DNA from: Lysobacterales bacterium
GTDB lineage: Bacteria > Pseudomonadota > Gammaproteobacteria > Xanthomonadales > Ahniellaceae
Assembly (NCBI GenBank): GCA_038330365.1
Contig: JBBQNY010000001.1
Location: 3,665-67,664 of the forward strand
Reading direction: 5' to 3'
Length of the DNA: 64,000 nucleotides
Shown: positions 18,187-29,874 of the stretch, piece after piece
How positions within the stretch are numbered: position 1 is the stretch's first letter
Layout: each line of letters begins with the position of its first letter
The notes under the pieces: model-generated
Databases searched by the model: none
Told to the model about the DNA's origin: nothing
What the model saw: only the letters and a program-made list of their open reading frames with translations
Made by a program: the position numbers and the translations under genes

Positions 18187-18270
18187 GGTGCTCCGGCGCC
18201 CTGTTCAAGTCGCACCGCGACTTGCACGGTCGGCGGGATTACCATCGGGTCACGACAGGGGAGTGCTTGG

Positions 18271-19737
18271 ATGCCGATGAGAATGCTGAGAGCGGGCAGC
18301 GAGCCCATGGCACGCGTCGACACTGCGTGGCTGCGGATGGAAGCGCCGACCAACCGGATGATGATCACAGGCGTCATGACCTTCGCTTCGCCGCTGGCGC
18401 TGGAGGATCTCAAGCAGGTGCTCACGCGACGGTTTCTTTCCTATCGCCGCTTCCAGCAGCGCGCCATCGACACCCCCGCCGGTGCGTTCTGGAGCGATGA
18501 CGAGCACTTCGATCTCGACTGGCACCTGCGCGCGACAGCGTTGCCGGGCCATGCCGGCAAAGCGGAGCTGCAGCATCTGGTGAGCCAGCTCGCATCGAGT
18601 CCGCTGGATCATTCCAGGCCACTCTGGCAGTTCCATCTGGTCGAGCGTTACGGCGGCGGATCGGCGCTCATCACGCGACTGCACCACTGCTACGCGGATG
18701 GCATGGCGCTGGTGCAGGTCCTGCTTTCGCTGACCGATGTGGAGGCGAAGCCCACGCACCGCGTGGAGCTGGAACGCGCATGGCTCAAGCGTGACCGCGG
18801 TTCGGTGACCGAGCGTCTTCTGGAGCCGGCGCGCGCCGGCTTGCAGAACGCGGCGCATCTTGGCGGCAAGGCGTTCCACAAGGTGCGCGAACTGATGGAT
18901 GACCCCGCCCAGGTCGAAACGCTGGCTCGGGGCGGTGGTGAAATACTGCGCGAACTGGCGATCGCACTGTCGCTCAGCGACGACCCCATCACGCGCCTCA
19001 AGGGCAGGCTCGGTCCAACCAAGCGGGTTGCCTGGGCCGAGCCCCTGTCGCTGGAGGAGGCCAAGACGCTTTCACGTGCGCTCGAATGCACCGTCAACGA
19101 CGTGTTGCTTGCCGCCGCCGCCGGTGCATTGCGCGCATGGCTGATCGAGAACGGCGATGGTGTCGATGGCATGACCATCCGTGCCACGGTGCCGGTCAAC
19201 CTGCGCCCGCTGGAGCATTCGCGCAAGCTGGGCAATCATTTCGGACTCGTGTTCCTAGATCTGCCCATCGGGGAATCCAATCCCCTGCGCCGGGTCGAGC
19301 GCGTGGCGGAATGCATGCGCGGGCTCAAGCGATCCAGGCAGGCTGCATTGACCTTTGGCTTGCTGGCTGCCGTGGGCATGGCGCCGGCGCCGGTGCAGCG
19401 GGCGGCACTCGAACTGTTCAGTCGCAAGGCGTCGGCGGTCGCGACCAATGTGCCGGGGCCGCAACAGCCCCTGTATCTCGCGGGCAGCCGGATTGACGAT
19501 CTCATGTTCTGGGTGCCGCAGACCGGCTCGGTCGGAGTAGGCATCAGCATCCTGTCCTACAACGGCCAGGTCCATTTCGGTCTGATCGCAGACGCGCAGC
19601 GCATTCCGGATCCGCAAGCCGTGATCGAGCGGTTTGCACCGGAATTCGAGAAACTCATGCTGATCGCACTCATGGAAGACTGGGACGCACCGATCACCGC
19701 GGCCGACGCGCAGGCGACGCTGGAAAAAATGGCCTGA
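18271..19737 (+). CDS. wax ester synthase / acyl-CoA:diacylglycerol acyltransferase (WS/DGAT) family
   Basis: Catalytic HHxxxDG motif HHCYADG at 18682..18702. Length and the C-terminal NVPGP motif are typical. The start could be ATG 18271 or ATG 18307 (MARVDTAWL). Confidence 0.9.
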   Translation: MPMRMLRAGSEPMARVDTAWLRMEAPTNRMMITGVMTFASPLALEDLKQVLTRRFLSYRRFQQRAIDTPAGAFWSDDEHFDLDWHLRATALPGHAGKAELQHLVSQLASSPLDHSRPLWQFHLVERYGGGSALITRLHHCYADGMALVQVLLSLTDVEAKPTHRVELERAWLKRDRGSVTERLLEPARAGLQNAAHLGGKAFHKVRELMDDPAQVETLARGGGEILRELAIALSLSDDPITRLKGRLGPTKRVAWAEPLSLEEAKTLSRALECTVNDVLLAAAAGALRAWLIENGDGVDGMTIRATVPVNLRPLEHSRKLGNHFGLVFLDLPIGESNPLRRVERVAECMRGLKRSRQAALTFGLLAAVGMAPAPVQRAALELFSRKASAVATNVPGPQQPLYLAGSRIDDLMFWVPQTGSVGVGISILSYNGQVHFGLIADAQRIPDPQAVIERFAPEFEKLMLIALMEDWDAPITAADAQATLEKMA

Positions 19738-19758
19738 AGCCTGGGGATCCGAGAGTCC

Positions 19759-20607
19759 CTATTCAATTTGCGATTGCGCGTACGCGGCATCCAGTGCCTC
19801 CATCGCGTCGCGCGGCGGCAGCGCGGCGGCACGCCCGTAAGCAGCCGCGGCTTCGTCCTCGCGCTTGTCCCCATGCAGCGCAAGCAGCATGTTGCCGTGT
19901 TCGATGTGGGCGATTGGCGATTTTGGTCCGAGTTTGAGCGCGGCCGTCATCAGCGCTTCCGCGGTCGCCGCTTTCGCCCCGTAAGTGAGCCCAGCGATCA
20001 GTTTGCCGACCTTCGACACGATCTCGGCGTGATAGAGCGACAGGGCGAGCATGGCCTCGGCGTGCTTCGGCGCCCGCTCGAGCGTGGCGTCGAGGCTGGT
20101 CTTGACCTTGCCCGCCAGACCCTGGCTCAAGGCCTGCGCGATGGAAATCGCCTGGCTGTAACGACCAAGCGAGTAGGCGTGCTGGTAGTGCGTGTTGGGC
20201 GCCGCAGGCCAGGCGTCCGCAGCGATGGCTGCGCGTTCAGCTGCTGCCAGGTAATCGCCCGCCTGCTGTTTCGGGTCCTGCACGAGTCGCGTCGCGTGGA
20301 TGGCCTGCGCGCGGCTGGCGAGGGAGGCGCCCCAGACGCCGAGGGCGTCGCCGCGGTCGAATGCATCGCCGAAGTCGCCACGATGGAACGCGCGCCAGGC
20401 ATCCTGCGCCGCCATTGCGAGTGCTGCCGGCGTGAGCTTGATGCGGGGCTGCGGCGCGGACGCGATCGCAGCGGCCGCCCACTTCGCGTCGGGAAATGGT
20501 TCCCGGTCGCCCTCGTGCAGCGCCGCCCAGCTGGACTTCAAACGGTCGCCGGCAAACTCGAAATCGTGGCCGGTCGATGCAAATGGAATCCAGCGGGTAC
20601 GGGCCAT
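19759..20607 (-). CDS. hypothetical protein (Ala-rich, helical-repeat-like)
   Basis: The track ORF extends to 20706. The ATG at 20607 (MARTRWIPF) avoids overlapping the promoter region of the divergent phasin gene. Codon bias is coding-like. No family recognised. Confidence 0.6.
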   Translation of the reverse strand: MARTRWIPFASTGHDFEFAGDRLKSSWAALHEGDREPFPDAKWAAAAIASAPQPRIKLTPAALAMAAQDAWRAFHRGDFGDAFDRGDALGVWGASLASRAQAIHATRLVQDPKQQAGDYLAAAERAAIAADAWPAAPNTHYQHAYSLGRYSQAISIAQALSQGLAGKVKTSLDATLERAPKHAEAMLALSLYHAEIVSKVGKLIAGLTYGAKAATAEALMTAALKLGPKSPIAHIEHGNMLLALHGDKREDEAAAAYGRAAALPPRDAMEALDAAYAQSQIE

Positions 20608-20754
20608 GGCAGTCGCTCGCGCAGGGCGGACCAGAATGCGGCATGCGTCGTTCGGCGGCAATGGCGAACGCCAAGGGAGCTCCCCAGGGTAGGGTGAATG
20701 CTCCATTGCGAGCGCCTACATTGGGTGCCTCAATCACGCAGTCCGGAAACCCTC

Positions 20755-21222
20755 ATGGCGAGTAGACAGATCCGCAGCACCCCCAAGCGCAACCCGTCGG
20801 CGCGCGAAATGCCACGTCAAATCTGGCTCGCCGGTCTCGGTGCATTCTCTTTCGCCCGCAAGCACGGCCGTTCAACCTTCAACCGCATGGTGAACGAGGG
20901 TGAGTCAGTGCGCGTCGATGCCGGCAAGCTGGCGCGTCAGCTGGACCATGACTTCCGTCGTGCAGCCGGCGACGTGGCCACCCGCGTTCAGGCTGGCTAC
21001 GCGCCACTGCGCAAGCGCGTGCTGGCGAATCTGCGCCAGACGGAGAAGAACATCGGGGCCGGTGCGGACGAGACGCTCGCGAAGGCGCGTTCGATCATTG
21101 ACCAGTCGCGCGCCGAGCTCAAGCGCGTGCGCGACAATGCCCGCGCCCGCCAGCGGCGTGCGGATGCACCCGCCACCGCGCGCAAGACCGCGCCGCGTCG
21201 CCGCAAGGCCGCAAACGCCTGA
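20755..21222 (+). CDS. phasin (PHA granule-associated protein family)
   Basis: ATG at 20755 (MASRQI...). IWLAGLGAFSFARKHG is the signature N-terminal motif of PhaF/PhaI-type phasins. It has a basic Arg/Ala/Lys C-terminal tail. Confidence 0.8.
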   Translation: MASRQIRSTPKRNPSAREMPRQIWLAGLGAFSFARKHGRSTFNRMVNEGESVRVDAGKLARQLDHDFRRAAGDVATRVQAGYAPLRKRVLANLRQTEKNIGAGADETLAKARSIIDQSRAELKRVRDNARARQRRADAPATARKTAPRRRKAANA

Positions 21223-21240
21223 TCCCCGCCGCGATACTCA

Positions 21241-21275
21241 ACGCGGCGCCGAGGAAGTCTTCCTCGGCGCCGCGT
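21241..21275. terminator. 17-bp-arm perfect palindrome between convergent phasin and pip genes
   Basis: ACGCGGCGCCGAGGAAG-t-CTTCCTCGGCGCCGCGT lies 19 nt after the phasin stop. There is no strong U-tract on either strand. Confidence 0.45.
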
Positions 21276-21370
21276 GCTGATTGCGATGAGGAGCCTGGGA
21301 ACGTTTGATCGGAATCTCCCTGCTCGAGAGCGTTGGACGAGGGCCCGCGCCAAGGGCGCGCCACGAGCGA

Positions 21371-22324
21371 TCAGCGATATCGATCCGTGGCTCGGACCAG
21401 CGCATCAGTGTTGCCCGCCTCGAAGGCCGAATGTCCGGCATCGCCGACGATCTCGAGTTCCGCCCGCGGCCAGGCCTGCTTGAGTTCCCACGCATTGGCC
21501 AGCGGACACACCACGTCGTAGCGGCCATGCACGATCGTGCCGGGTATGTCCGCCAGCTGCATGGCATCGCGCAGCAGCTGATTCTCCACCTCGAAGAACC
21601 CGCCGTGGACAAAGTAATGGCATTCGATCCGCGCGAACGCGAGTGCGAACTGCGCCTCGTCGTGTGACGCCACAAACTCCGCATCCGGCGTCAGGAAACT
21701 GGTGGCTCCCTCCCACGTCGCCCACGCGCGCGCCGCAGCCAGCCGTTCGTCTGCGTCAGCCGATGTCAGCCGGCGGTGGTATGCGGAAATCAGGTCATGC
21801 CGCTCGACCTCCGGAATTGCAGCTAGGAAATGCTGCCACGCGTCCGGATAGAGCCGCGACGCGCCTTGCTGGTAGAACCATTCCAGTTCCCAGCGTCGCA
21901 ACATGAAAATTCCGCGCAGCACCATCTCGGTGACGCGGGCCGGGTGCTTTTCCGCGTACGCCAACGCCAGCGTCGATCCCCAGGAACCGCCGAATACCTG
22001 CCAGCGCTCGATCCCGAGTCGCTCCCGCAGCTGTTCGATGTCGGCCACCAGGTCCCATGTGGTGTTGTCGACGAGATCGGCAGTCGGCGTGGAACGGCCG
22101 GATCCACGCTGGTCGAACAGCACGATGCGGTAGTGCGCGGGATCATGGAAGCACCGCATCTTGGCGTTGCACCCGCCGCCCGGCCCGCCGTGCAGCACGA
22201 CCACCGGCTTGCCTTGGGGATTGCCGCATTGCTCGAAATAGAGCGTATGCCTGTCGTCGACCTTCATCGTGCCGCTGTCGTAGGGCTCGATGCCAGGGTA
22301 GAGCGTGCGCCGCGATGCATTCAT
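21371..22324 (-). CDS. pip: prolyl aminopeptidase (proline iminopeptidase)
   Basis: MNASRRTLYPGIEPY...VDDRHTLYFEQCGNPQGKPVVVLHGGPGGG and GGSWGSTLAL (GxSxG). An alternative ATG at 22351 would overlap the TetR stop (ATGA). Confidence 0.92.
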   Translation of the reverse strand: MNASRRTLYPGIEPYDSGTMKVDDRHTLYFEQCGNPQGKPVVVLHGGPGGGCNAKMRCFHDPAHYRIVLFDQRGSGRSTPTADLVDNTTWDLVADIEQLRERLGIERWQVFGGSWGSTLALAYAEKHPARVTEMVLRGIFMLRRWELEWFYQQGASRLYPDAWQHFLAAIPEVERHDLISAYHRRLTSADADERLAAARAWATWEGATSFLTPDAEFVASHDEAQFALAFARIECHYFVHGGFFEVENQLLRDAMQLADIPGTIVHGRYDVVCPLANAWELKQAWPRAELEIVGDAGHSAFEAGNTDALVRATDRYR

Positions 22325-22347
22325 GCGTGGGCCTTGTGAGTCGATGA

Positions 22348-22980
22348 TCATTTCAGATACTGGGTCGCGAGGTTGTGCAGGTGCAGCCGCTCGGCATCGC
22401 GCAGGAAAGGCGCGAGAAGCATCATGACCTGGTAGATCCCGCGGGTGAGATCGGTCGCTTCGCGCTCAAGATGTCCTCCGCGCACCGCGTTGTAACTCAT
22501 CCAGAAGCTCGTCACGAGCAGCACGTTTTCGGCTGTCGCCTCGATTTCGGCGCGTGACGCGCGCATCTCGCCGCTGCTCGCAAGCCCGCGCAGCACGACC
22601 TCGGCATTGGCCGTCGCGCGCTTGAGGATCCGCGAGAAATGCAGCCGCAATTTGCGGTTGCGGCTGGTGATGTCCACCAGGTCCCGGTAGATGAAACGAA
22701 AGTCCCACATGCACTCGAAGGCGACGTGCAGCTGCAGCCAGATGTCTTCCAGCGTCGGCAGCCGGTCTTCGGGCTGGACCAGCGCCTCTTCGATACGGAC
22801 TTCATAGCGTGCGAACAAATGCTCGACGATGTCGTCCTTGTTGCGGAAATGGTAGTAGAGGTTGCCCGGACTGATCTCGAGTTCGTCCGCGATGTGATTG
22901 GTGGTGACATTCGGCTCGCCGCGCTCGTTGAACATGCCGAGGCTGGCATCGAGGATTCGATCGCGGGTCTTGCTGGCCAT
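22348..22980 (-). CDS. TetR/AcrR family transcriptional regulator
   Basis: The ATG at 22980 gives MASKTRDRILDASLGMFNERGEPNVTTNHIADELEISPGNLYYHFRNK, a TetR HTH. The upstream part of the track ORF is antisense/low quality. Confidence 0.9.
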   Translation of the reverse strand: MASKTRDRILDASLGMFNERGEPNVTTNHIADELEISPGNLYYHFRNKDDIVEHLFARYEVRIEEALVQPEDRLPTLEDIWLQLHVAFECMWDFRFIYRDLVDITSRNRKLRLHFSRILKRATANAEVVLRGLASSGEMRASRAEIEATAENVLLVTSFWMSYNAVRGGHLEREATDLTRGIYQVMMLLAPFLRDAERLHLHNLATQYLK

Positions 22981-23005
22981 TTGGGCTCCCTCTTCTGCCC
23001 TCGGC

Positions 23006-23263
23006 TCAGCCGGCGAGCTTGTCCACCAGGTCGGCGTACTGCTGCTGCGCCTTGTCCGGCGGGGTGCCCTTGAGCTTGGACCACGCGTCGTACTTCGCTC
23101 CACCCTTGAAGTCGAAGAAGGCCGGCCGCTCGCCGCTGACGTCGCCCTCGCTGCCCTGCTTGTAGAGGGCGTACAGACGCAACAGCATCGCGTCGTCGGG
23201 ACGATCGGTCAGCGTCTTGATCTTCTGCTGGGCGGCTTCGAATCGTGTTCCGGGATCGGCCAT
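23006..23263 (-). CDS. acyl-CoA-binding protein (ACBP)
   Basis: 85 aa from the ATG at 23263: MADPGTRFEAAQQKIKTL...LLRLYALYKQGSEGD...KYDAWSKLKG, the classic ACBP four-helix signature. Confidence 0.88.
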   Translation of the reverse strand: MADPGTRFEAAQQKIKTLTDRPDDAMLLRLYALYKQGSEGDVSGERPAFFDFKGGAKYDAWSKLKGTPPDKAQQQYADLVDKLAG

Positions 23264-23466
23264 GTGCGTTGTTTCCAGGCGGGATGGTTGCAGGGATCCT
23301 CCGAACAATGCCACGTCGGCGGCACGATGCCCAGAAGGGCCGAAGCAGGATCACGGATCAACGCGCTTCCTGCCCGCAGCTCGCGCGCTTCTGGTCAAGC
23401 CCGCACGGGATGGCTATCTTGCTGCGACGGGCGTGCACGGCGCCGCTGGCGACTTGCGGGGAAGTC

Positions 23467-25449
23467 ATGAGCTATTTCATCACGGGCGGCACCGGGTTCA
23501 TTGGCCGACATCTGGTCGAGCGTCTGCTCGCGCGCAGTGGCAAGATCCATGTGCTGGTGCGCCGCGGGTCCGAAGCAAAATTCGACCAGCTGGTGGCGCA
23601 GAGCGGAGCCGCCAAGGGCAGGCTGGTGAAGGTGACGGGAGATCTCGCCAAGCCCAGGCTCGGACTTGCGCCCGCCGCCATCGCAAAACTCCGCGGCAAA
23701 GTGCGCCATTTCTTCCATCTGGCCGCGATCTACGATCTCACCGCGGATGCCGAAACCCAGGAAGACATCAACGTAGGTGGCACCCGGCGCGCCCTGGAGC
23801 TGGCGTCGGCAATCGGCGCGGGTACGTTCCATCATGTGAGTTCGATCGCGGCTGCAGGCCTTTATCCCGGCGTATTCAAGGAAGACATGTTCAGCGAGGC
23901 TGAAGGACTGGACGATCCGTACTTCCGCACCAAACACGACTCCGAGGGGCTGGTGCGCGCGCAGGACGAGATCCCTTTCCGAATCTACCGGCCGGCGATC
24001 GTGGTGGGCGACTCGCGTACAGGCGAAATCGACAAGATCGACGGCCCCTACTATTTCTTCCGCCTGATCAAGAAGACCCGCGAACTGTTGCCCAAGTGGA
24101 TGCCCACCATCGGTATCGAGGGCAGTCGCATCAATGTCGTGCCGGTCGATTTCGTCGCGGCCGCCATCGATCACATCGCGCACAAAAGGGGACTGGACGG
24201 GCAGGCCTTCCACCTCGTGGATCCCGCACCGCTGCGCGTTGGCGAGGTCCTCAACATTTTTGCGCGAGCTGCCCACGCGCCCGAGATGACCATGCGTATC
24301 GATGCCCGCATGTTCGCGGTCGTGCCCCCGTTCATCCGCAGCGCGCTGGGCAACCTGCCACCGGTGAAACGTCTCACCGGCATGGTCATGAAAGATCTCG
24401 GGATTCCGCGCGAGGTGCTGAAGTACATCAGTTATCCGACGCGTTTCGATACCCGCGAGGCGGAGCGCGCGCTCAAGGGCAGCGGGATCGAGGTGCCGCC
24501 GCTCGAGTCGTATGCGTGGAAGCTCTGGGACTACTGGGAACGTCATCTCGATCCGGAACTGTTCCTCGATCATTCACTGAACGGGCGCGTACGTGGCAAA
24601 AGAGTGCTGATCACCGGCGGCTCAGCGGGTATCGGGCGCGCGGCCGCACTCAAGATCGCAGCGGCGGGAGCGGAAGTGATCATCGTCGCGCGCAAGCAGG
24701 AAGAGCTCGACAGCGTGCGTGCCGAGATCGAGGGTGCAGGCGGCATATGCCATTGCTACACCGCGGACATCGCCGAGCTGGACCAGTGCGACCGGCTGGT
24801 GGCATCGGTGCTGGCGGAGCATGGTCCACTCGATGTGCTCATCAACAACGCGGGGCGGTCGATCCGGCGTTCGGTCGCACTCTCCTACGATCGTTTCCAT
24901 GATTTCGAGCGCACCATGCAGCTCAACTATTTCGGGGCGTTGCGACTCATCCTCGGCTTCCTGCCGACGATGGCGGAGCGTCGCCGCGGCCACGTGATCA
25001 ATATCTCGTCAATCGGCGTACTGGCGAACTCGCCGCGTTTCTCGGCCTATGTGGCCTCGAAGTCCGCGCTCGACGCGTTCTCGAACTGTGCGCAGGGCGA
25101 GTTCTCGGATCTTGGTATCGCGTTCACCACCATCAACATGCCGCTGGTGCGAACGGCAATGATCGGGCCGACGAAGATGTATGACAGCGTGCCCACGCTG
25201 TCGCCGGAAGAGGCAGCCGACATGATCTCGACCGCGATCATCCGGCGGCCGAGCCGTATCGCGACCCGGCTCGGGGTTTTCTCGTCGGTGTTGAACGCCG
25301 TGGCGCCCAAGGCTTACGAGGTCGTGATGAACACCGCGTACAACCTCTTCCCCGATTCAGCGGCAGCCAAGGGCATGAAGGGCAGGGATGAGAAGCCCTC
25401 GAACGAGCAGGTGGCATTCGCTGCCGTCATGCGTGGCGTGCACTGGTAG
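23467..25449 (+). CDS. two-domain fatty acyl-CoA reductase-like SDR (N-terminal thioester-reductase/male-sterility-type domain plus C-terminal classical SDR)
   Basis: The ATG at 23467 gives MSYFITGGTGFIGRHL. A second Rossmann motif VLITGGSAGIGRAAAL lies about 400 aa in, and YVASKSA is the SDR catalytic motif. At 660 aa it has the size and layout of the Marinobacter 661-aa alcohol-forming fatty acyl-CoA reductase, as I recall it. Confidence 0.8.
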   Translation: MSYFITGGTGFIGRHLVERLLARSGKIHVLVRRGSEAKFDQLVAQSGAAKGRLVKVTGDLAKPRLGLAPAAIAKLRGKVRHFFHLAAIYDLTADAETQEDINVGGTRRALELASAIGAGTFHHVSSIAAAGLYPGVFKEDMFSEAEGLDDPYFRTKHDSEGLVRAQDEIPFRIYRPAIVVGDSRTGEIDKIDGPYYFFRLIKKTRELLPKWMPTIGIEGSRINVVPVDFVAAAIDHIAHKRGLDGQAFHLVDPAPLRVGEVLNIFARAAHAPEMTMRIDARMFAVVPPFIRSALGNLPPVKRLTGMVMKDLGIPREVLKYISYPTRFDTREAERALKGSGIEVPPLESYAWKLWDYWERHLDPELFLDHSLNGRVRGKRVLITGGSAGIGRAAALKIAAAGAEVIIVARKQEELDSVRAEIEGAGGICHCYTADIAELDQCDRLVASVLAEHGPLDVLINNAGRSIRRSVALSYDRFHDFERTMQLNYFGALRLILGFLPTMAERRRGHVINISSIGVLANSPRFSAYVASKSALDAFSNCAQGEFSDLGIAFTTINMPLVRTAMIGPTKMYDSVPTLSPEEAADMISTAIIRRPSRIATRLGVFSSVLNAVAPKAYEVVMNTAYNLFPDSAAAKGMKGRDEKPSNEQVAFAAVMRGVHW

Positions 25450-25599
25450 CGCGGACGCCGCCGCCCGTCAGGCTCACACGGAGCCAAAGGCGCTCCGCAG
25501 ACATCGACCAGTCCCGGACTCTCTGGTTCAGAACGTGCCGATGTTCACCGACCGAGATTCGCCGGCCCGGTCGATGTCGCCGACATCACTGCGCTGGCG

Positions 25600-26229
25600 T
25601 CAGCTCTTCGTTCGAGCGCTGCGGGCGCGCTTGCCCGTGCTTTTGACGGCGGTTTTGCGACCACCTGGCTTGCGGGTGGCGGTCTTGCCGGCCGCAGAAT
25701 TTTTCCCGGACGTGCTGGCACCCGACGCCTTGCCCGCAGGAGATTTCCGAGCGGCGCCGCGCGCAGCCGGCTTGTTCGCCGGAGCAGACGTGGGACGCGC
25801 AGCCGACGCGCTGTAAGCCTGCTGCGCGCGCACACTGCGGTTGAGCTCTTCGATGCGCTCGACCAGTGCGTGCATCTCGTCGCGTCCGGGCACACCAAGA
25901 CGGGTAAGAGCGCGTGAGACGCGATCTTCGAAAACCTTTTCCAGCCGGTCCCAGGTATCGGCAGCACGTTCTTTTACATTGCCCACGGTGTTCTCCATGC
26001 GGTCGCGCACGTCATTGGCGCGGCCCGACGTGAAATGACGGGTTTTGGATTCGATCGTCTGGCCTTCGCGGATCAGCGCCTCGAACAGTTTCGAGCCCTG
26101 GTCCTGCGCGCGGGAAAACGCGCCGAGGCCAGCCATCCAGATGTGCTGGGCGGATTCGAGCAACTTGCCTTGCGCGTCGCTCGGCGGCGTGCCGGTTCCG
26201 GATTTCTTCTTGAATCGGGGTTCGGTCAT
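25600..26229 (-). CDS. PhaF-like phasin with histone-H1-like Ala/Lys/Pro tail
   Basis: The ATG at 26229 gives MTEPRFKK... with the phasin signature IWMAGLGAFSRAQDQG. The C-terminal ~70 aa are AKP/GK-rich (AARPTSAPANKPAARGAARKSPAGKASG...KRARSARTKS). Confidence 0.82.
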   Translation of the reverse strand: MTEPRFKKKSGTGTPPSDAQGKLLESAQHIWMAGLGAFSRAQDQGSKLFEALIREGQTIESKTRHFTSGRANDVRDRMENTVGNVKERAADTWDRLEKVFEDRVSRALTRLGVPGRDEMHALVERIEELNRSVRAQQAYSASAARPTSAPANKPAARGAARKSPAGKASGASTSGKNSAAGKTATRKPGGRKTAVKSTGKRARSARTKS

Positions 26230-26352
26230 GGATGCGGTCTCGGATCGGGGGAGAGGCATGCTGGAACGGATTTCTCGAATAGACAATCTACGCGCGCACT
26301 TGCCGCCCGGGCAAGCGCTAGGACTCGATCCCCCCGCGTCTCCGGGACAGTG

Positions 26353-27669
26353 TCACCGCTGCACCCGCCTCCTGGGCCTGCGAGCGGGCTTCCCTGGCGC
26401 GCCCGCGTCGGGTGCTGCGCGACGGACACTTTCGTCCAGGTCGTCGAGAGCACGACGCAGTTTGCGCGACTGCTCGGTCGCTCTCGGGCGTGGGGCACGC
26501 AATCGATCCAGCAGGCGCACCGCAGGATTGTCCAGTACTTCGTCGCGCAGGCGGATGCCGTGACGGGCCAGCAGCGGCGCCAGGGTGGCACGCTGTCGCC
26601 GGAGGTCGGCCAGCGTCGACTGGAACGCATGTTCGGCGACCGTCCGGCGATTGCCGTAGCTGAACAGACTCGCGAAGAAGACGTCGCTGTCGTTGGCGTC
26701 GGGCTCAAACAGAACCAGGTCCGATGCGGGAAACTGCTGTCGATACTTTTCCAGACCGACCTGCATGCGGGACTTGAGCAGGGTGCGAAACGTCTGTGAC
26801 AGTACCGCTGGCAGGCCGCTTTTGCTCAGGGATGCGAATCGTCGTCGTGCACCCTGATTTCGGGAATCAGGGGAGTCGGATCCGGATGCGTTTTCCGCAT
26901 CGAAGGGCACCAGCGGATTGAGCGCGAGCACCAGATCCGCGCCGTCAGCCATGGCCACCGATGCATGCATGGTGCGGCGCAGGGCGCCATCCACGTAGTG
27001 GCGGCCGTCGATCTCGACCGGCGGATACAGACCCGGCAACGCGGAACTCGCCTGTACCGCCCTGGAAATCGGCACGTGATCGAATCCGGGCGCTCCGAAT
27101 CGCACCACCGCCCCGGTATCCAGGTCGACGGCCACCACGAACAGGCGGCGCGGCAGTTCGCGGAAGTCGTTGCTGCGGCCGTAGTAGGCGAACACATCCC
27201 GCAGATAGCGATCAATGGGCTCGTTGTCGAACAGTCCTGCTGGCACCAGCGCGCCGAAGCGCGCGAATCCGCTGCTCCACCAGCCTTGCAGCGGATGACG
27301 CAGGCGGTCAGCCGCCCAGCCGAGCAGCACGCCCGGCGCTGCGCCCATGCGACTCATGTACTCCGCGAACGCCGGGCGCAAGAACTGTTCCGGACGGAAA
27401 TTGACCCGCGGCGCCTTGCCCGTGATGAACAGTCGGCAGATCTCGTCGATATCGATGCCGTTGGCGAGACCCGCGGCCAGAAACGCGCCGGAACTCACGC
27501 CCACGTACACATCCAGACGGGTCAGATCGCAGCCTTCCAGCGCCCGGTCGAGGGCACTGAGCGCGCCGACCTCGTACATGCCGCCAACCGGTCCGCCGCC
27601 GGCTATGGCGATGCCCACGCGGGAACGCTTGGCGCGACGCGGCGAGTCGCCGGTTTGAACGATCAGCAT
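26353..27669 (-). CDS. patatin-like phospholipase/lipase
   Basis: ATG at 27669 (MLIVQTGD...). Oxyanion motif IAGGGPVGG, nucleophile GVSSG (GxSxG), Asp dyad YVDGAL. The upstream 169 codons of the track ORF are not supported. Confidence 0.88.
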   Translation of the reverse strand: MLIVQTGDSPRRAKRSRVGIAIAGGGPVGGMYEVGALSALDRALEGCDLTRLDVYVGVSSGAFLAAGLANGIDIDEICRLFITGKAPRVNFRPEQFLRPAFAEYMSRMGAAPGVLLGWAADRLRHPLQGWWSSGFARFGALVPAGLFDNEPIDRYLRDVFAYYGRSNDFRELPRRLFVVAVDLDTGAVVRFGAPGFDHVPISRAVQASSALPGLYPPVEIDGRHYVDGALRRTMHASVAMADGADLVLALNPLVPFDAENASGSDSPDSRNQGARRRFASLSKSGLPAVLSQTFRTLLKSRMQVGLEKYRQQFPASDLVLFEPDANDSDVFFASLFSYGNRRTVAEHAFQSTLADLRRQRATLAPLLARHGIRLRDEVLDNPAVRLLDRLRAPRPRATEQSRKLRRALDDLDESVRRAAPDAGAPGKPARRPRRRVQR

Positions 27670-27792
27670 GCAGGACTGCAGTCGGACGGACGGAGCGCGA
27701 TTGTAGGGGATGCGCAGCGGCGGCCTCGGGTCTGCGTGCACTCCTGGCGTAGAGTTGAGCGCCGAATTTCGAGACAAAGGCCCCCGACTGGT

Positions 27793-28527
27793 ATGGATCA
27801 CGCCCGCCGCATCGAGGAAATGGCGCGCCAGTTGCGCGATGTGCGAGATCCCGTGCGCGAGCCCGGCAACCGCTCTCCGTGGATGGCCGCGGTGCAGCGC
27901 TGGCAAGCCGAGCGCCTTGCGGCAAGCTTTTCCGATCTGGCCGGCGACCCGCGGTTTGCACGCGCGACGCGCTTCTTTCTGCAGGATCTCTATGGGGAGC
28001 AGGATGTGGCCTGGCGCGACCGCGACGTCGTGCGCATCCTGCCGACCATGCGGCGCTGGTTGCCCGAGCGCCTGATCGCCGCGGTCGCGCAAGCACTTGA
28101 GCTGGACCTCGCCACGCATCGTCTGGATCTGGCACTGGCCGCCGAGCTGGAAAAGGCGCATGGACTGCAGCGTCAACCACGCCTGGACCTGGCGCGGTAT
28201 ATCGCAGCTTACCGAACGTCATCGACCCCCGAATCGCGGCAGGAACAGCTTGGCCTGCTGCTCGGTGTCGGCGCCGAACTCGATCGACTGGCGCGCAACC
28301 CGGTTCTGGGCGGATTGCTGAAGGTTGCCCGCGCACCCGCGCGTGCTGCCGGACTCGATCGCATGCAGCGATTTCTCGAGGAAGGTTTCGCGGCCTGCCG
28401 GGCAATGGGACGCGACGGCGCCGAATTCCTGTCACGTATCGGCGAACGTGAAGCTGCCGCTCTGGAACGGCTGTTCGAGGGCGACGCGGACCCTTTCACG
28501 CCGAGAGTCGTTCGGCGATCCGATTGA
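27793..28527 (+). CDS. conserved hypothetical protein with an FFLQDLY motif (resembles the family labelled FFLEELY-motif protein)
   Basis: Only the last 244 codons of track ORF 26965..28527 are non-antisense. The ATG at 27793 gives MDHARRIEEM... and contains ATRFFLQDLYGEQD. The family name is from memory and unverified. Confidence 0.6.
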   Translation: MDHARRIEEMARQLRDVRDPVREPGNRSPWMAAVQRWQAERLAASFSDLAGDPRFARATRFFLQDLYGEQDVAWRDRDVVRILPTMRRWLPERLIAAVAQALELDLATHRLDLALAAELEKAHGLQRQPRLDLARYIAAYRTSSTPESRQEQLGLLLGVGAELDRLARNPVLGGLLKVARAPARAAGLDRMQRFLEEGFAACRAMGRDGAEFLSRIGEREAAALERLFEGDADPFTPRVVRRSD

Positions 28528-28564
28528 CCGGGCGTTGAGCCTGGAAGTCCCTCACCGCGTCGTT

Positions 28565-28849
28565 TCAGCGGTGTTTGCCGAATTCCTTGTCAAGATACTT
28601 CTCGATTTCGGATTCGACCGTCCCGCGCAATGCGCCGAACAGGAAACCGAGTTCCGCGACGACCTCCACCAATCCGGGCAAGAGATGGATTGCACCTTCC
28701 ACTCCCATGCGCTGGAAGTGGAGCGAATCGCCTTCCCAGCGATAGTCGACCTGGAATTTCTCGGCCAGCAGAAGGGCCACACGCTCCACCGATTTGCGCG
28801 AAGCGGCGGGCGACTTCGAGTGATTGCGCTTGACTAGGATACGGGCCAT
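28565..28849 (-). CDS. polyhydroxyalkanoic acid system family protein (PHA_gran_rgn-like)
   Basis: 94 aa: MARILVKRNHSKS...AEKFQVDYRWEGDSLHFQRMGVEGAIHL...VVAELGFLFGALRGTVESEIEKYLD. This matches the small PHA-system protein pattern as I remember it. Confidence 0.7.
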   Translation of the reverse strand: MARILVKRNHSKSPAASRKSVERVALLLAEKFQVDYRWEGDSLHFQRMGVEGAIHLLPGLVEVVAELGFLFGALRGTVESEIEKYLDKEFGKHR

Positions 28850-28983
28850 GGAGGATGTTTCACGTCGGCAGGGTGGATCGGGGAAGAATACGGTATGCAG
28901 CCGGGAGGTCGCTTGATCAGGGGAACCGTGTTCGCCGTGTGGTCCCGGCCTTTGCTACAGTCGCCGTGCCGCCGCGCTGGAGC

Positions 28984-29874
28984 GTGCATGTGCGACTGAG
29001 TTTTCCAAACGGCGAGCACGCCGACGTCAAGCTTTCACCGGGCGAGATCCGGATTGGCAGCGACCCCGACAACGAGGTCGTGCTGCAAGGCGATGGCGTG
29101 CGACCGCGACACGCGAGCGTTGTGATCGACCGGCGTGGAACGCTGCTGCGTGTGCAGTCCCGCGACGCGCTCACGCATCTCAACTCGCGGCCAGTCATCG
29201 AACTCGCGCTGCTGCGCGTCGGCGATCTGGTGACGCTCGACGCCATTCGCATCGCGCTCAAGCCGCAGGATGAAACCGCGATCAAGTCGGCGGGAAAGTC
29301 GTCGGAGGATGCCGAGGCGGAGGATTTCGGCGCGGGTTCCCGGGTGGCGCTGCGGGGCCTGTCCGGCCGCTATTTCGGCCGGGCGATTCCGCTCCTGAAG
29401 CCGCTGACCATTGGCTGCGACAGCAAATGCGACATCGTGCTGGACTCCGACAGCAGTTTGCCGTCGCGCATGGCGACACTCGAGATCTCGCCGGTAGGCG
29501 CGTATCTGCGCGGTGTCGACAAGACCTGCGTGTTTGAGGTCAATGGCGTCGAGCGCAGCGACGTGACGCTGCACGGGGGCGACCAGATCGCCTTTGACCA
29601 GGAACGTTTTGCGCTTGAGGCGCCTGGATTGCCGGCGCGTGGCAATGTGCAGCCGGCTGCCGCCGTCGCCGGTCCGCCGGTCCCGATCACGCAAACGCTG
29701 CGCGCGATCACGGCGGAAGACGTTGCCGGCGTGAATTCGGCTCCGCCCCCGCCCGAACCTGAAGCGGACGAAGGCGACGGGCCTCCGGCTGCCAGTCCGT
29801 GGTTGCTGGTGCTCGCGGGCGCGCTGATTGCGGCCGCGCTGGCGATGTTGTTCCTGCACGGCAGCGGTCCCTGA
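28984..29874 (+). CDS. membrane-anchored protein with two FHA domains
   Basis: GTG start at 28984 (or 28990). FHA 1: IRIGSDPDNEVVLQGDGVRPRHASVV...LNSRPV...LRVGDLVTLDAIRIAL. FHA 2: LTIGCDSKCDIVLDSDSSLPSRMATLE...VNGVERSDVTLHGGDQIAFDQERFAL. The C-terminal TM is WLLVLAGALIAAALAMLFL. Confidence 0.75.
   Translation: MHVRLSFPNGEHADVKLSPGEIRIGSDPDNEVVLQGDGVRPRHASVVIDRRGTLLRVQSRDALTHLNSRPVIELALLRVGDLVTLDAIRIALKPQDETAIKSAGKSSEDAEAEDFGAGSRVALRGLSGRYFGRAIPLLKPLTIGCDSKCDIVLDSDSSLPSRMATLEISPVGAYLRGVDKTCVFEVNGVERSDVTLHGGDQIAFDQERFALEAPGLPARGNVQPAAAVAGPPVPITQTLRAITAEDVAGVNSAPPPPEPEADEGDGPPAASPWLLVLAGALIAAALAMLFLHGSGP

Follow-up and report, generated by a model that had tools for sequence, protein, structure and literature searches.

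What are polyhydroxyalkanoate (PHA)-type phasins doing beside genes for wax ester synthesis, in a region where no PHA synthase is found? The question is raised by positions 18271-28849 of a 64,000-nt window (the whole stretch of DNA analysed, itself part of contig C1) from a Lysobacterales bacterium, whose assembly amounts to 3.29 Mb in 310 contigs (93% complete, 6.7% contamination). A sequence-only reading of the window had proposed that the phasins and a small PHA-system protein coat wax ester or triacylglycerol (TAG) bodies made by a wax ester synthase/diacylglycerol acyltransferase (WS/DGAT) and a fatty acyl-CoA reductase (FAR). From profile searches of the window, a comparison of the locus among relatives and a survey of 151 genomes of the order, we on balance favour the view that the region is a conserved neutral-lipid storage locus, most likely for wax esters, encoding their synthesis, coating and mobilisation.

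Profile searches bore out the gene identifications of the sequence-only reading. The WS/DGAT, the phasins, the run of acyl-CoA-binding protein (ACBP), TetR and Pip genes, the reductase, a patatin, a protein with an FFLQDLY motif and the PHA-system protein all lie where it had placed them and exceed the curated cut-offs of Pfam or NCBIfam; the translations also contain the motifs that it quoted. The gene order is WS/DGAT (+), a 282-aa gene (-), a small phasin (+), Pip, TetR and ACBP (-), the reductase (+), a PhaF-like phasin (-), the patatin (-), an FFLEELY-family gene (+) and PHA_gran_rgn (-). The WS/DGAT (18271-19737, + strand, 488 aa) scored 415 bits with TIGR02946 (cut-off 310), matched both domains of the enzyme (PF03007, 121 bits; PF06974, 143 bits) and carries the catalytic HHxxxDG as HHCYADG. 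The FAR (23467-25449, + strand, 660 aa) is a two-domain reductase of the PRK07201 type. It had been described as divergent, but it is a full-length and high-scoring member of its family: the match to NF005539 (978 bits, cut-off 549) spans profile positions 1-657, end to end, with an N-terminal NAD_binding_4 domain (PF07993, 164 bits) followed by a C-terminal classical short-chain dehydrogenase/reductase (SDR) domain (PF00106, 173 bits). A structure search with the reductase returned no close solved structure.

Two genes encode PF05597 proteins. The PhaF-like phasin (25600-26229, - strand) matched both PF05597 (145 bits) and TIGR01837 (108 bits, cut-off 94.7); its start is at 26229 or 26259, and it has a histone-like basic tail of ~70 residues rich in Ala, Lys, Pro and Gly. 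The small phasin-like protein (20755-21222, + strand, 155 aa, with a short basic tail) passes the Pfam model only (PF05597, 45 bits, cut-off 28.8), scoring 41 bits against the same TIGR01837 cut-off of 94.7. The PHA_gran_rgn protein (28565-28849, - strand, 94 aa) scored 92.7 bits with PF09650 (cut-off 26.6). The patatin-like lipase/esterase (26353-27669, - strand, 438 aa; PF01734, 105 bits) has a complete set of motifs, namely oxyanion GGGPVG, nucleophile GVSSG and catalytic DGA, and divergent from it lies the gene for the 244-aa FFLEELY-family protein (27793-28527, + strand; NF047641, 208 bits, cut-off 55), in which the family motif reads FFLQDLY. The starts of these last two genes, like that of the 282-aa gene (19759-20607), were refined against orthologs.

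To follow these genes through the order, we searched the 151 genomes, each at least 95% complete and several of them fragmented assemblies, with nine queries. WS/DGAT was present in 106/151 genomes and PhaC, of any class, in 86/151. FAR was found in 104 genomes (104/106 with WS/DGAT, 0/45 without). The patatin ortholog (93/151) and FFLEELY (73/151) were likewise confined to genomes with WS/DGAT (93/106 and 73/106, respectively; 0/45 without it in either case); with respect to PhaC, the patatin was present in 41/86 genomes that have the synthase and 52/65 that lack it, and FFLEELY in 43/86 and 30/65. The PF05597 phasin (125/151) occurred in 105/106 genomes with WS/DGAT and 20/45 without, and in 69/86 with PhaC versus 56/65 without, which amounts to no association with PhaC (p = 0.39). 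PHA_gran_rgn (138/151) gave 105/106 and 33/45 for WS/DGAT and 80/86 and 58/65 for PhaC, so the tie to PHA synthesis genes on which its family name is based was not seen in this profile. It was Phasin_2 (79/151) that shadowed PhaC (78/86 with the synthase versus 1/65 without), 48 of its carriers having WS/DGAT and 31 not. The profile thus resolves two modules, one composed of PhaC(E) and Phasin_2, the other of WS/DGAT, FAR, PF05597 and the patatin, often with FFLEELY. The components peculiar to the neutral-lipid module are patatin and FFLEELY; PHA_gran_rgn accompanies either module almost without exception.

Within genera, the whole module was present or absent together, being found in 2/4 genomes of one genus (f7/g26) and 4/7 of another (f7/g38). 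We observed a somewhat different layout in family f9, where FAR, WS/DGAT, phasin, patatin and PHA_gran_rgn were present in 21/21 genomes and PhaC, Phasin_2 and FFLEELY in 0/21; in this family the phasin and patatin genes are an adjacent pair in at least 13 genomes, and FAR and WS/DGAT are located elsewhere.

The association is also one of position. Using the reductase as a probe, we confirmed 596 relatives in a species-level genome collection and compared the best 80 loci on a tblastn map, with loci from Arenimonas, Lysobacter, Luteimonas, Pseudoxanthomonas, Thermomonas, Chiayiivirga, Rudaea, Dokdonella, Wenzhouxiangella and many metagenome-assembled genomes (MAGs). Dozens of species of Lysobacterales share the arrangement of TetR-ACBP, FAR, PhaF-like phasin, patatin, FFLEELY and PHA_gran_rgn, and its core order holds in many genera and in no fewer than eight groups at family level; the expectation that the gene association would be conserved in relatives therefore held. 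Upstream of FAR, 48 loci had 8 kb or more of flanking sequence; 46 of these carry divergent ACBP together with TetR there, 33 the 282-aa gene, 11 WS/DGAT and 2 Pip. Downstream, the patatin was found in 42/53 loci, PHA_gran_rgn in 40/53, FFLEELY in 39/53 and PhaF in at least 31/53. The full arrangement, WS/DGAT included, recurs in the nearest relatives (L003, L005). The same arrangement, in which a phasin gene separates the 282-aa gene from TetR, is seen in Wenzhouxiangellaceae-type loci, where WS/DGAT also adjoins the cluster, and in a Burkholderiales MAG (L081). Measured by gene coordinates, the distance from FAR to a PF05597 gene is no more than 3 kb in at least 54/97 genomes (at least 25 of them PhaC-less), and that from the patatin no more than 1.5 kb in at least 48/88 (at least 16 of them PhaC-less), these counts being lower bounds taken from the best 150 phasin matches. 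In many Lysobacteraceae, FAR and PhaF are separated by a gap of 1.3-3 kb; that of Arenimonas fontis (L018 12039-13058) is occupied by a gene whose 339-aa product, a predicted membrane protein, has no relation to the cluster.

Several points weigh against wax ester storage as the function of this locus. First, although profile searches gave no PhaC_N or class III PhaC match in the window, the absence of PhaC reported by the sequence-only reading is true of the window and not of the genome. The check that it had suggested, a search for phaC in the whole assembly, found a class III PhaC on contig C2 (TIGR01836, 517 bits, cut-off 365), with PhaE (PF09712, 160 bits), PhaR (PF07879 and PF05233) and two PhaB-like SDRs as neighbours. 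Together these form a complete class III PHA locus (L083 6302-11734) in the order SDR, PhaR, SDR, a 158-aa open reading frame, PhaC and PhaE, and a gene for a PhaP-type Phasin_2 is present on contig C94 (L084, about 571-1215). We considered contamination as the source of PhaC and ruled it out: the locus is flanked by the housekeeping genes for GluQ-RS, PNPase, TruB and IF-2, its GC content is similar, and it is syntenic in a same-genus genome at 83-87% amino-acid identity, the same range as for the window cluster against that genome. Since the organism has PhaC, PhaE, PhaR and Phasin_2 of its own, the phasins described here could serve PHA granules, wax-ester bodies or both. The PhaE on C2 itself has an Ala/Lys-rich basic tail, as phasins do.

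Second, a Xanthomonas-like group (f2: g8, g18, g48, g59) has PhaC, Phasin_2, PF05597 and PHA_gran_rgn, and is without WS/DGAT, FAR, patatin and FFLEELY. Because this group keeps both the phasin and PHA_gran_rgn, these two proteins are independent of the wax-ester enzymes. Their genes are directly adjacent there (e.g., G078 C1:396565 and 396967). Nine genomes of f2/g18 (G012, G022, G031, G057, G071, G078, G113, G125 and G136) combine PhaC and mostly Phasin_2 with such an adjacent pair, which looks like what remains of the larger cluster described here. Third, PhaZh1 of Haloferax mediterranei, a patatin-like protein, is a PHA-granule depolymerase, as cited in PMC6520949. Beyond these, we found no literature report of a wax ester, TAG or droplet for members of the order; the Fisher tests applied to the 151 genomes ignore shared ancestry; and no convincing palindromic TetR operator was found in 72 orthologous ACBP<>FAR regions or in the intergenic regions of the window.

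The first three of these points favour an explanation in which the phasins, PHA_gran_rgn and the patatin serve the PHA granules of the PhaC/PhaE locus, the patatin being the depolymerase, and in which their neighbourhood here stems from co-regulation or history. A review of phasins also counts PF05597 and PF09650 among the four phasin families, together with PF09602 and PF09361 (PMC5658603). We nevertheless regard this explanation as unlikely. Fifty-six genomes with FAR and WS/DGAT are PhaC-less by two models (TIGR01836 and PF07167), and they keep the phasin in 55 cases and PHA_gran_rgn in all 56. Class I or II PhaC overlooked by TIGR01836 had been a concern, and PF07167 yielded no further genome. 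The genomes of Arenimonas fontis 3729k, Wenzhouxiangella sp. XN79A and one complete Wenzhouxiangellaceae chromosome all carry the cluster with a phasin and have no PhaC match. In the Rhodanobacteraceae-like family f11, 20/21 genomes have PhaC but only 7/21 have PF05597, and the 7 include all 5 with FAR. The PF05597 proteins are thus not linked to the PHA synthase either by position, PhaC lying on another contig, or by profile; the phasin that does track the synthase is Phasin_2, of which this genome has one.

The chief ground for this explanation is PhaZh1, and the profile of the patatin speaks against it here. The likeness between the two is that of a patatin-fold hydrolase encoded with, and acting on, a protein-coated storage inclusion. 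However, a PhaZh1-like co-occurrence with PHA synthase was not observed for the patatin described here: its ortholog is missing from every genome without WS/DGAT, among them all 36 with PhaC, and is the more frequent in genomes without the synthase. By this distribution, a neutral lipid is a likelier substrate than PHA.

What became of the proposal that PHA-type phasins coat wax-ester or TAG bodies is therefore mixed: the genes do follow WS/DGAT and FAR, but the PHA synthase elsewhere in the genome and the Xanthomonas-like exception stand against an exclusive role. The organism probably makes both polymers, wax ester by the locus studied here and PHA by a separate class III module with its own Phasin_2. 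Proteins of the PF05597 and PHA_gran_rgn families may coat hydrophobic inclusions in general and not wax esters in particular. A stronger version, to which we give slightly less than even credence, is that in Lysobacterales and some Betaproteobacteria they are mainly structural proteins of wax-ester droplets, making up with the patatin, FFLEELY and the TPR-like 282-aa protein (described below) the first dedicated lipid-droplet proteome of Gram-negative bacteria, Phasin_2 then being the true PHA-granule phasin of the order.

Another explanation would have the reductase and WS/DGAT make fatty alcohols or esters not for storage droplets but for other ends, such as envelope lipids or the detoxification of excess acyl-CoA or alcohols, and would take the phasin-like proteins as mainly nucleoid-associated or stress-protective. 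The histone-like tail of the PhaF-like protein is in keeping with this, as is the lack of any literature report that we could find of a storage lipid for these genera. Furthermore, nine genomes have neither storage enzyme set, and the phasin persists in one of them and PHA_gran_rgn in two (3/9). We consider this explanation improbable, because the phasin has been lost from the other 8/9 of these genomes and because the synthesis genes stand in tight linkage with those for a dedicated lipase, ACBP and two amphipathic proteins of coat type, as would suit a cycle of making, coating and mobilising a lipid. Finally, that the grouping reflects chance or a lineage-specific neighbourhood without functional meaning is close to refuted: genes of unrelated function do stand nearby (Pip, photolyase, serC and possibly an FHA gene) and WS/DGAT is within 8 kb in a minority of loci, but the core order extends over the many genera and family-level groups noted above, the same set recurs in the Burkholderiales MAG and in Betaproteobacteria-assigned scaffolds (PMC10351704), and patatin and FFLEELY are absent from all 45 genomes that lack WS/DGAT.

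If the region is a wax ester storage locus, as we favour, its parts can be arranged in a plausible pathway. From family membership, the PRK07201-type reductase would convert a fatty acyl-CoA to a fatty alcohol, WS/DGAT would join this alcohol to a second acyl-CoA to give the ester, ACBP would buffer or deliver the acyl-CoA substrate, and the co-transcribed TetR would control the divergent reductase promoter. Comparative genomics suggests the remaining roles: the two PF05597 phasins and PHA_gran_rgn may coat and organise the hydrophobic inclusion, the patatin hydrolase may mobilise the stored lipid, and FFLEELY and the TPR-like 282-aa protein may be accessory factors of the same storage system. 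Hence wax ester is the presumed product, and the droplet surface the presumed site of the phasins and PHA_gran_rgn.

The regulatory genes form an operon in which ACBP, TetR and Pip are read in the same direction. ACBP (23006-23263, - strand, 85 aa) scored 91 bits with PF00887. The TetR-family regulator (22348-22980, - strand, 210 aa) has the C-terminal domain PF13972 (138 bits) in addition to PF00440; its closest solved structures, 3nnr and 3rh2, are both uncharacterised TetRs, and a search of a large protein database returned only generic AcrR/TetR labels. We infer that acyl-CoA may govern this TetR, since ACBP is co-transcribed with it. The prolyl aminopeptidase Pip (21371-22351, - strand; TIGR01249, 486 bits) belongs to the operon here, as had been proposed, in that its start and the TetR stop overlap by 4 nt. 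However, among relatives it stands beside the cluster in the nearest two alone, and as the last gene of the ACBP-TetR operon it is probably a passenger.

Between ACBP and FAR lies a divergent promoter region (23264-23466) with words that are conserved across orthologous regions. Of 74 ACBP<>FAR intergenic regions gathered from orthologous loci, 72 were scored for conserved words. These words resemble promoter boxes (-35/-10 elements), not palindromes: the ACBP-side box is CGTTGACC, and the FAR-side box is CTCTGGCAA or TGGTCA-N17-TATCTT. A comparison of the six intergenic regions of the window revealed no shared 14-mer of note at up to 2 mismatches. A weak palindrome at 26299-26315 is not conserved in L004 or L005. 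A shared TetR operator was accordingly dropped as evidence, the conserved words being promoter-like and the palindromes of the window weak. In the gap that separates the end of the photolyase gene from WS/DGAT, upstream of the cluster, we observed a perfect palindrome (18206-18224) with 8-bp arms, CAAGTCGC-ACC-GCGACTTG, which may serve as a terminator or as a binding site.

The 282-aa gene (19759-20607, - strand), which is conserved and was missing from the sequence-only reading, encodes a protein resembling those with tetratricopeptide repeats (TPR) and has no Pfam match. Its AlphaFold model is confident and all-helical, with a predicted local distance difference test score (pLDDT) of 93.8. 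The best fold in the PDB by Foldseek was that of a bacterial sterol transporter, 7t1s (E 2.4e-5, TM 0.56/0.65), followed by the lipid-transfer TPR domain of PTPIP51 (7cc7), TPAT (8g52) and then generic TPR proteins. Taken together, the matches to the BstC sterol transporter and the PTPIP51 TPR domain (E 2.4e-5 and 1.3e-4, TM 0.55-0.68, identity 17-20%) suggest, at the level of predicted fold, that this cytoplasmic protein may bind lipid, generic TPR proteins matching as well. The AlphaFold model of the FFLEELY protein is also confident and all-helical (pLDDT 93.8); a PDB fold search with it gave no match (best E 0.26), and the modelled structure may represent a new fold.

Beyond PHA_gran_rgn, and divergent from it, lies a gene with an FHA domain (28855-29874; PF00498, with PF16697 in two stretches). 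It adjoins PHA_gran_rgn in 34/53 loci, at times with both genes inverted together (L033, L035, L058), and may be a member of the unit or merely a stable neighbour.

How does this locus compare with known systems? In its two catalytic steps it is like the wax-ester pathways of Marinobacter aquaeolei VT8 (Maqu_2507) and Acinetobacter baylyi (Acr1), and it uses the same enzyme families, a PRK07201-type two-domain reductase and a WS/DGAT with HHxxxDG. It differs from both in the genes that surround the enzymes: the conserved cluster also includes the TetR-ACBP operon and genes for two phasins of the PF05597 family, PHA_gran_rgn, the patatin, FFLEELY and the TPR-like protein. To our knowledge, no coat proteins have been described for the wax-ester bodies of Gram-negative bacteria, and our literature search found no paper that places phasins on such bodies.

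The second comparison is with the cluster for medium-chain-length PHA of Pseudomonas putida, which consists of phaC1-phaZ-phaC2-phaD and phaF-phaI with a neighbouring TIGR02610/PF09650 gene. Both loci have PF05597 phasins, one of them with a histone-like tail as in PhaF, a small PHA_gran_rgn protein, a TetR-family regulator and a hydrolase beside the polymer-forming enzyme, and thus the same logic of making, coating, regulating and mobilising. In contrast to P. putida, the cluster described here has neither a class II PhaC nor the alpha/beta-hydrolase PhaZ; WS/DGAT and FAR occupy the position of the synthase and the patatin is the hydrolase. A Pseudomonas-type pha cluster, with class II PhaC and PhaZ adjacent to PhaD and PhaF/PhaI, is therefore not what the window contains, and the only PhaC of this genome is of class III, on another contig and with its own Phasin_2.

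Part of the arrangement has been reported before. In a study of Antarctic and Subantarctic sediments (PLoS One 2023, PMC10351704), scaffolds bearing ws/dgat were found to carry ACBP, a Maqu_2507-like SDR and a 'polyhydroxyalkanoic acid system family protein', with a phasin on one of them; the SDRs of those scaffolds, as distinct from the reductase described here, are 59-62% identical to Maqu_2507. That study differs from ours in listing the phasin gene and those of the PHA system as neighbours related to PHA, and it includes no distribution test against PhaC, no mention of a patatin and no proposal of droplet coats. The claim that such a unit had not been described is thus mostly right, with this report as the qualification.

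The proteins of PHA granules and those of actinobacterial and eukaryotic lipid droplets are well studied. Much less has, as far as we know, been described of the proteins that cover and maintain the neutral-lipid droplets of Gram-negative bacteria, and the phylogenetic profile now names candidates for them, namely the two phasins, PHA_gran_rgn, patatin, FFLEELY and the TPR-like protein. Carriers that can be cultivated include the PhaC-less Arenimonas fontis and Wenzhouxiangella sp. XN79A, and both systems are present in species of Lysobacter and Luteimonas, for instance Lysobacter niastensis DSM 18481 and Luteimonas lutimaris JCM 16916. The genes are also possible parts for the engineering of wax ester production, where they might be used to control droplet size and mobilisation. 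For annotation, the consequence is that the label 'phasin' or 'PHA system protein' does not imply PHA metabolism. If these proteins do act at wax-ester droplets, the 'PHA' in the names of their families would be, in part, a misnomer.

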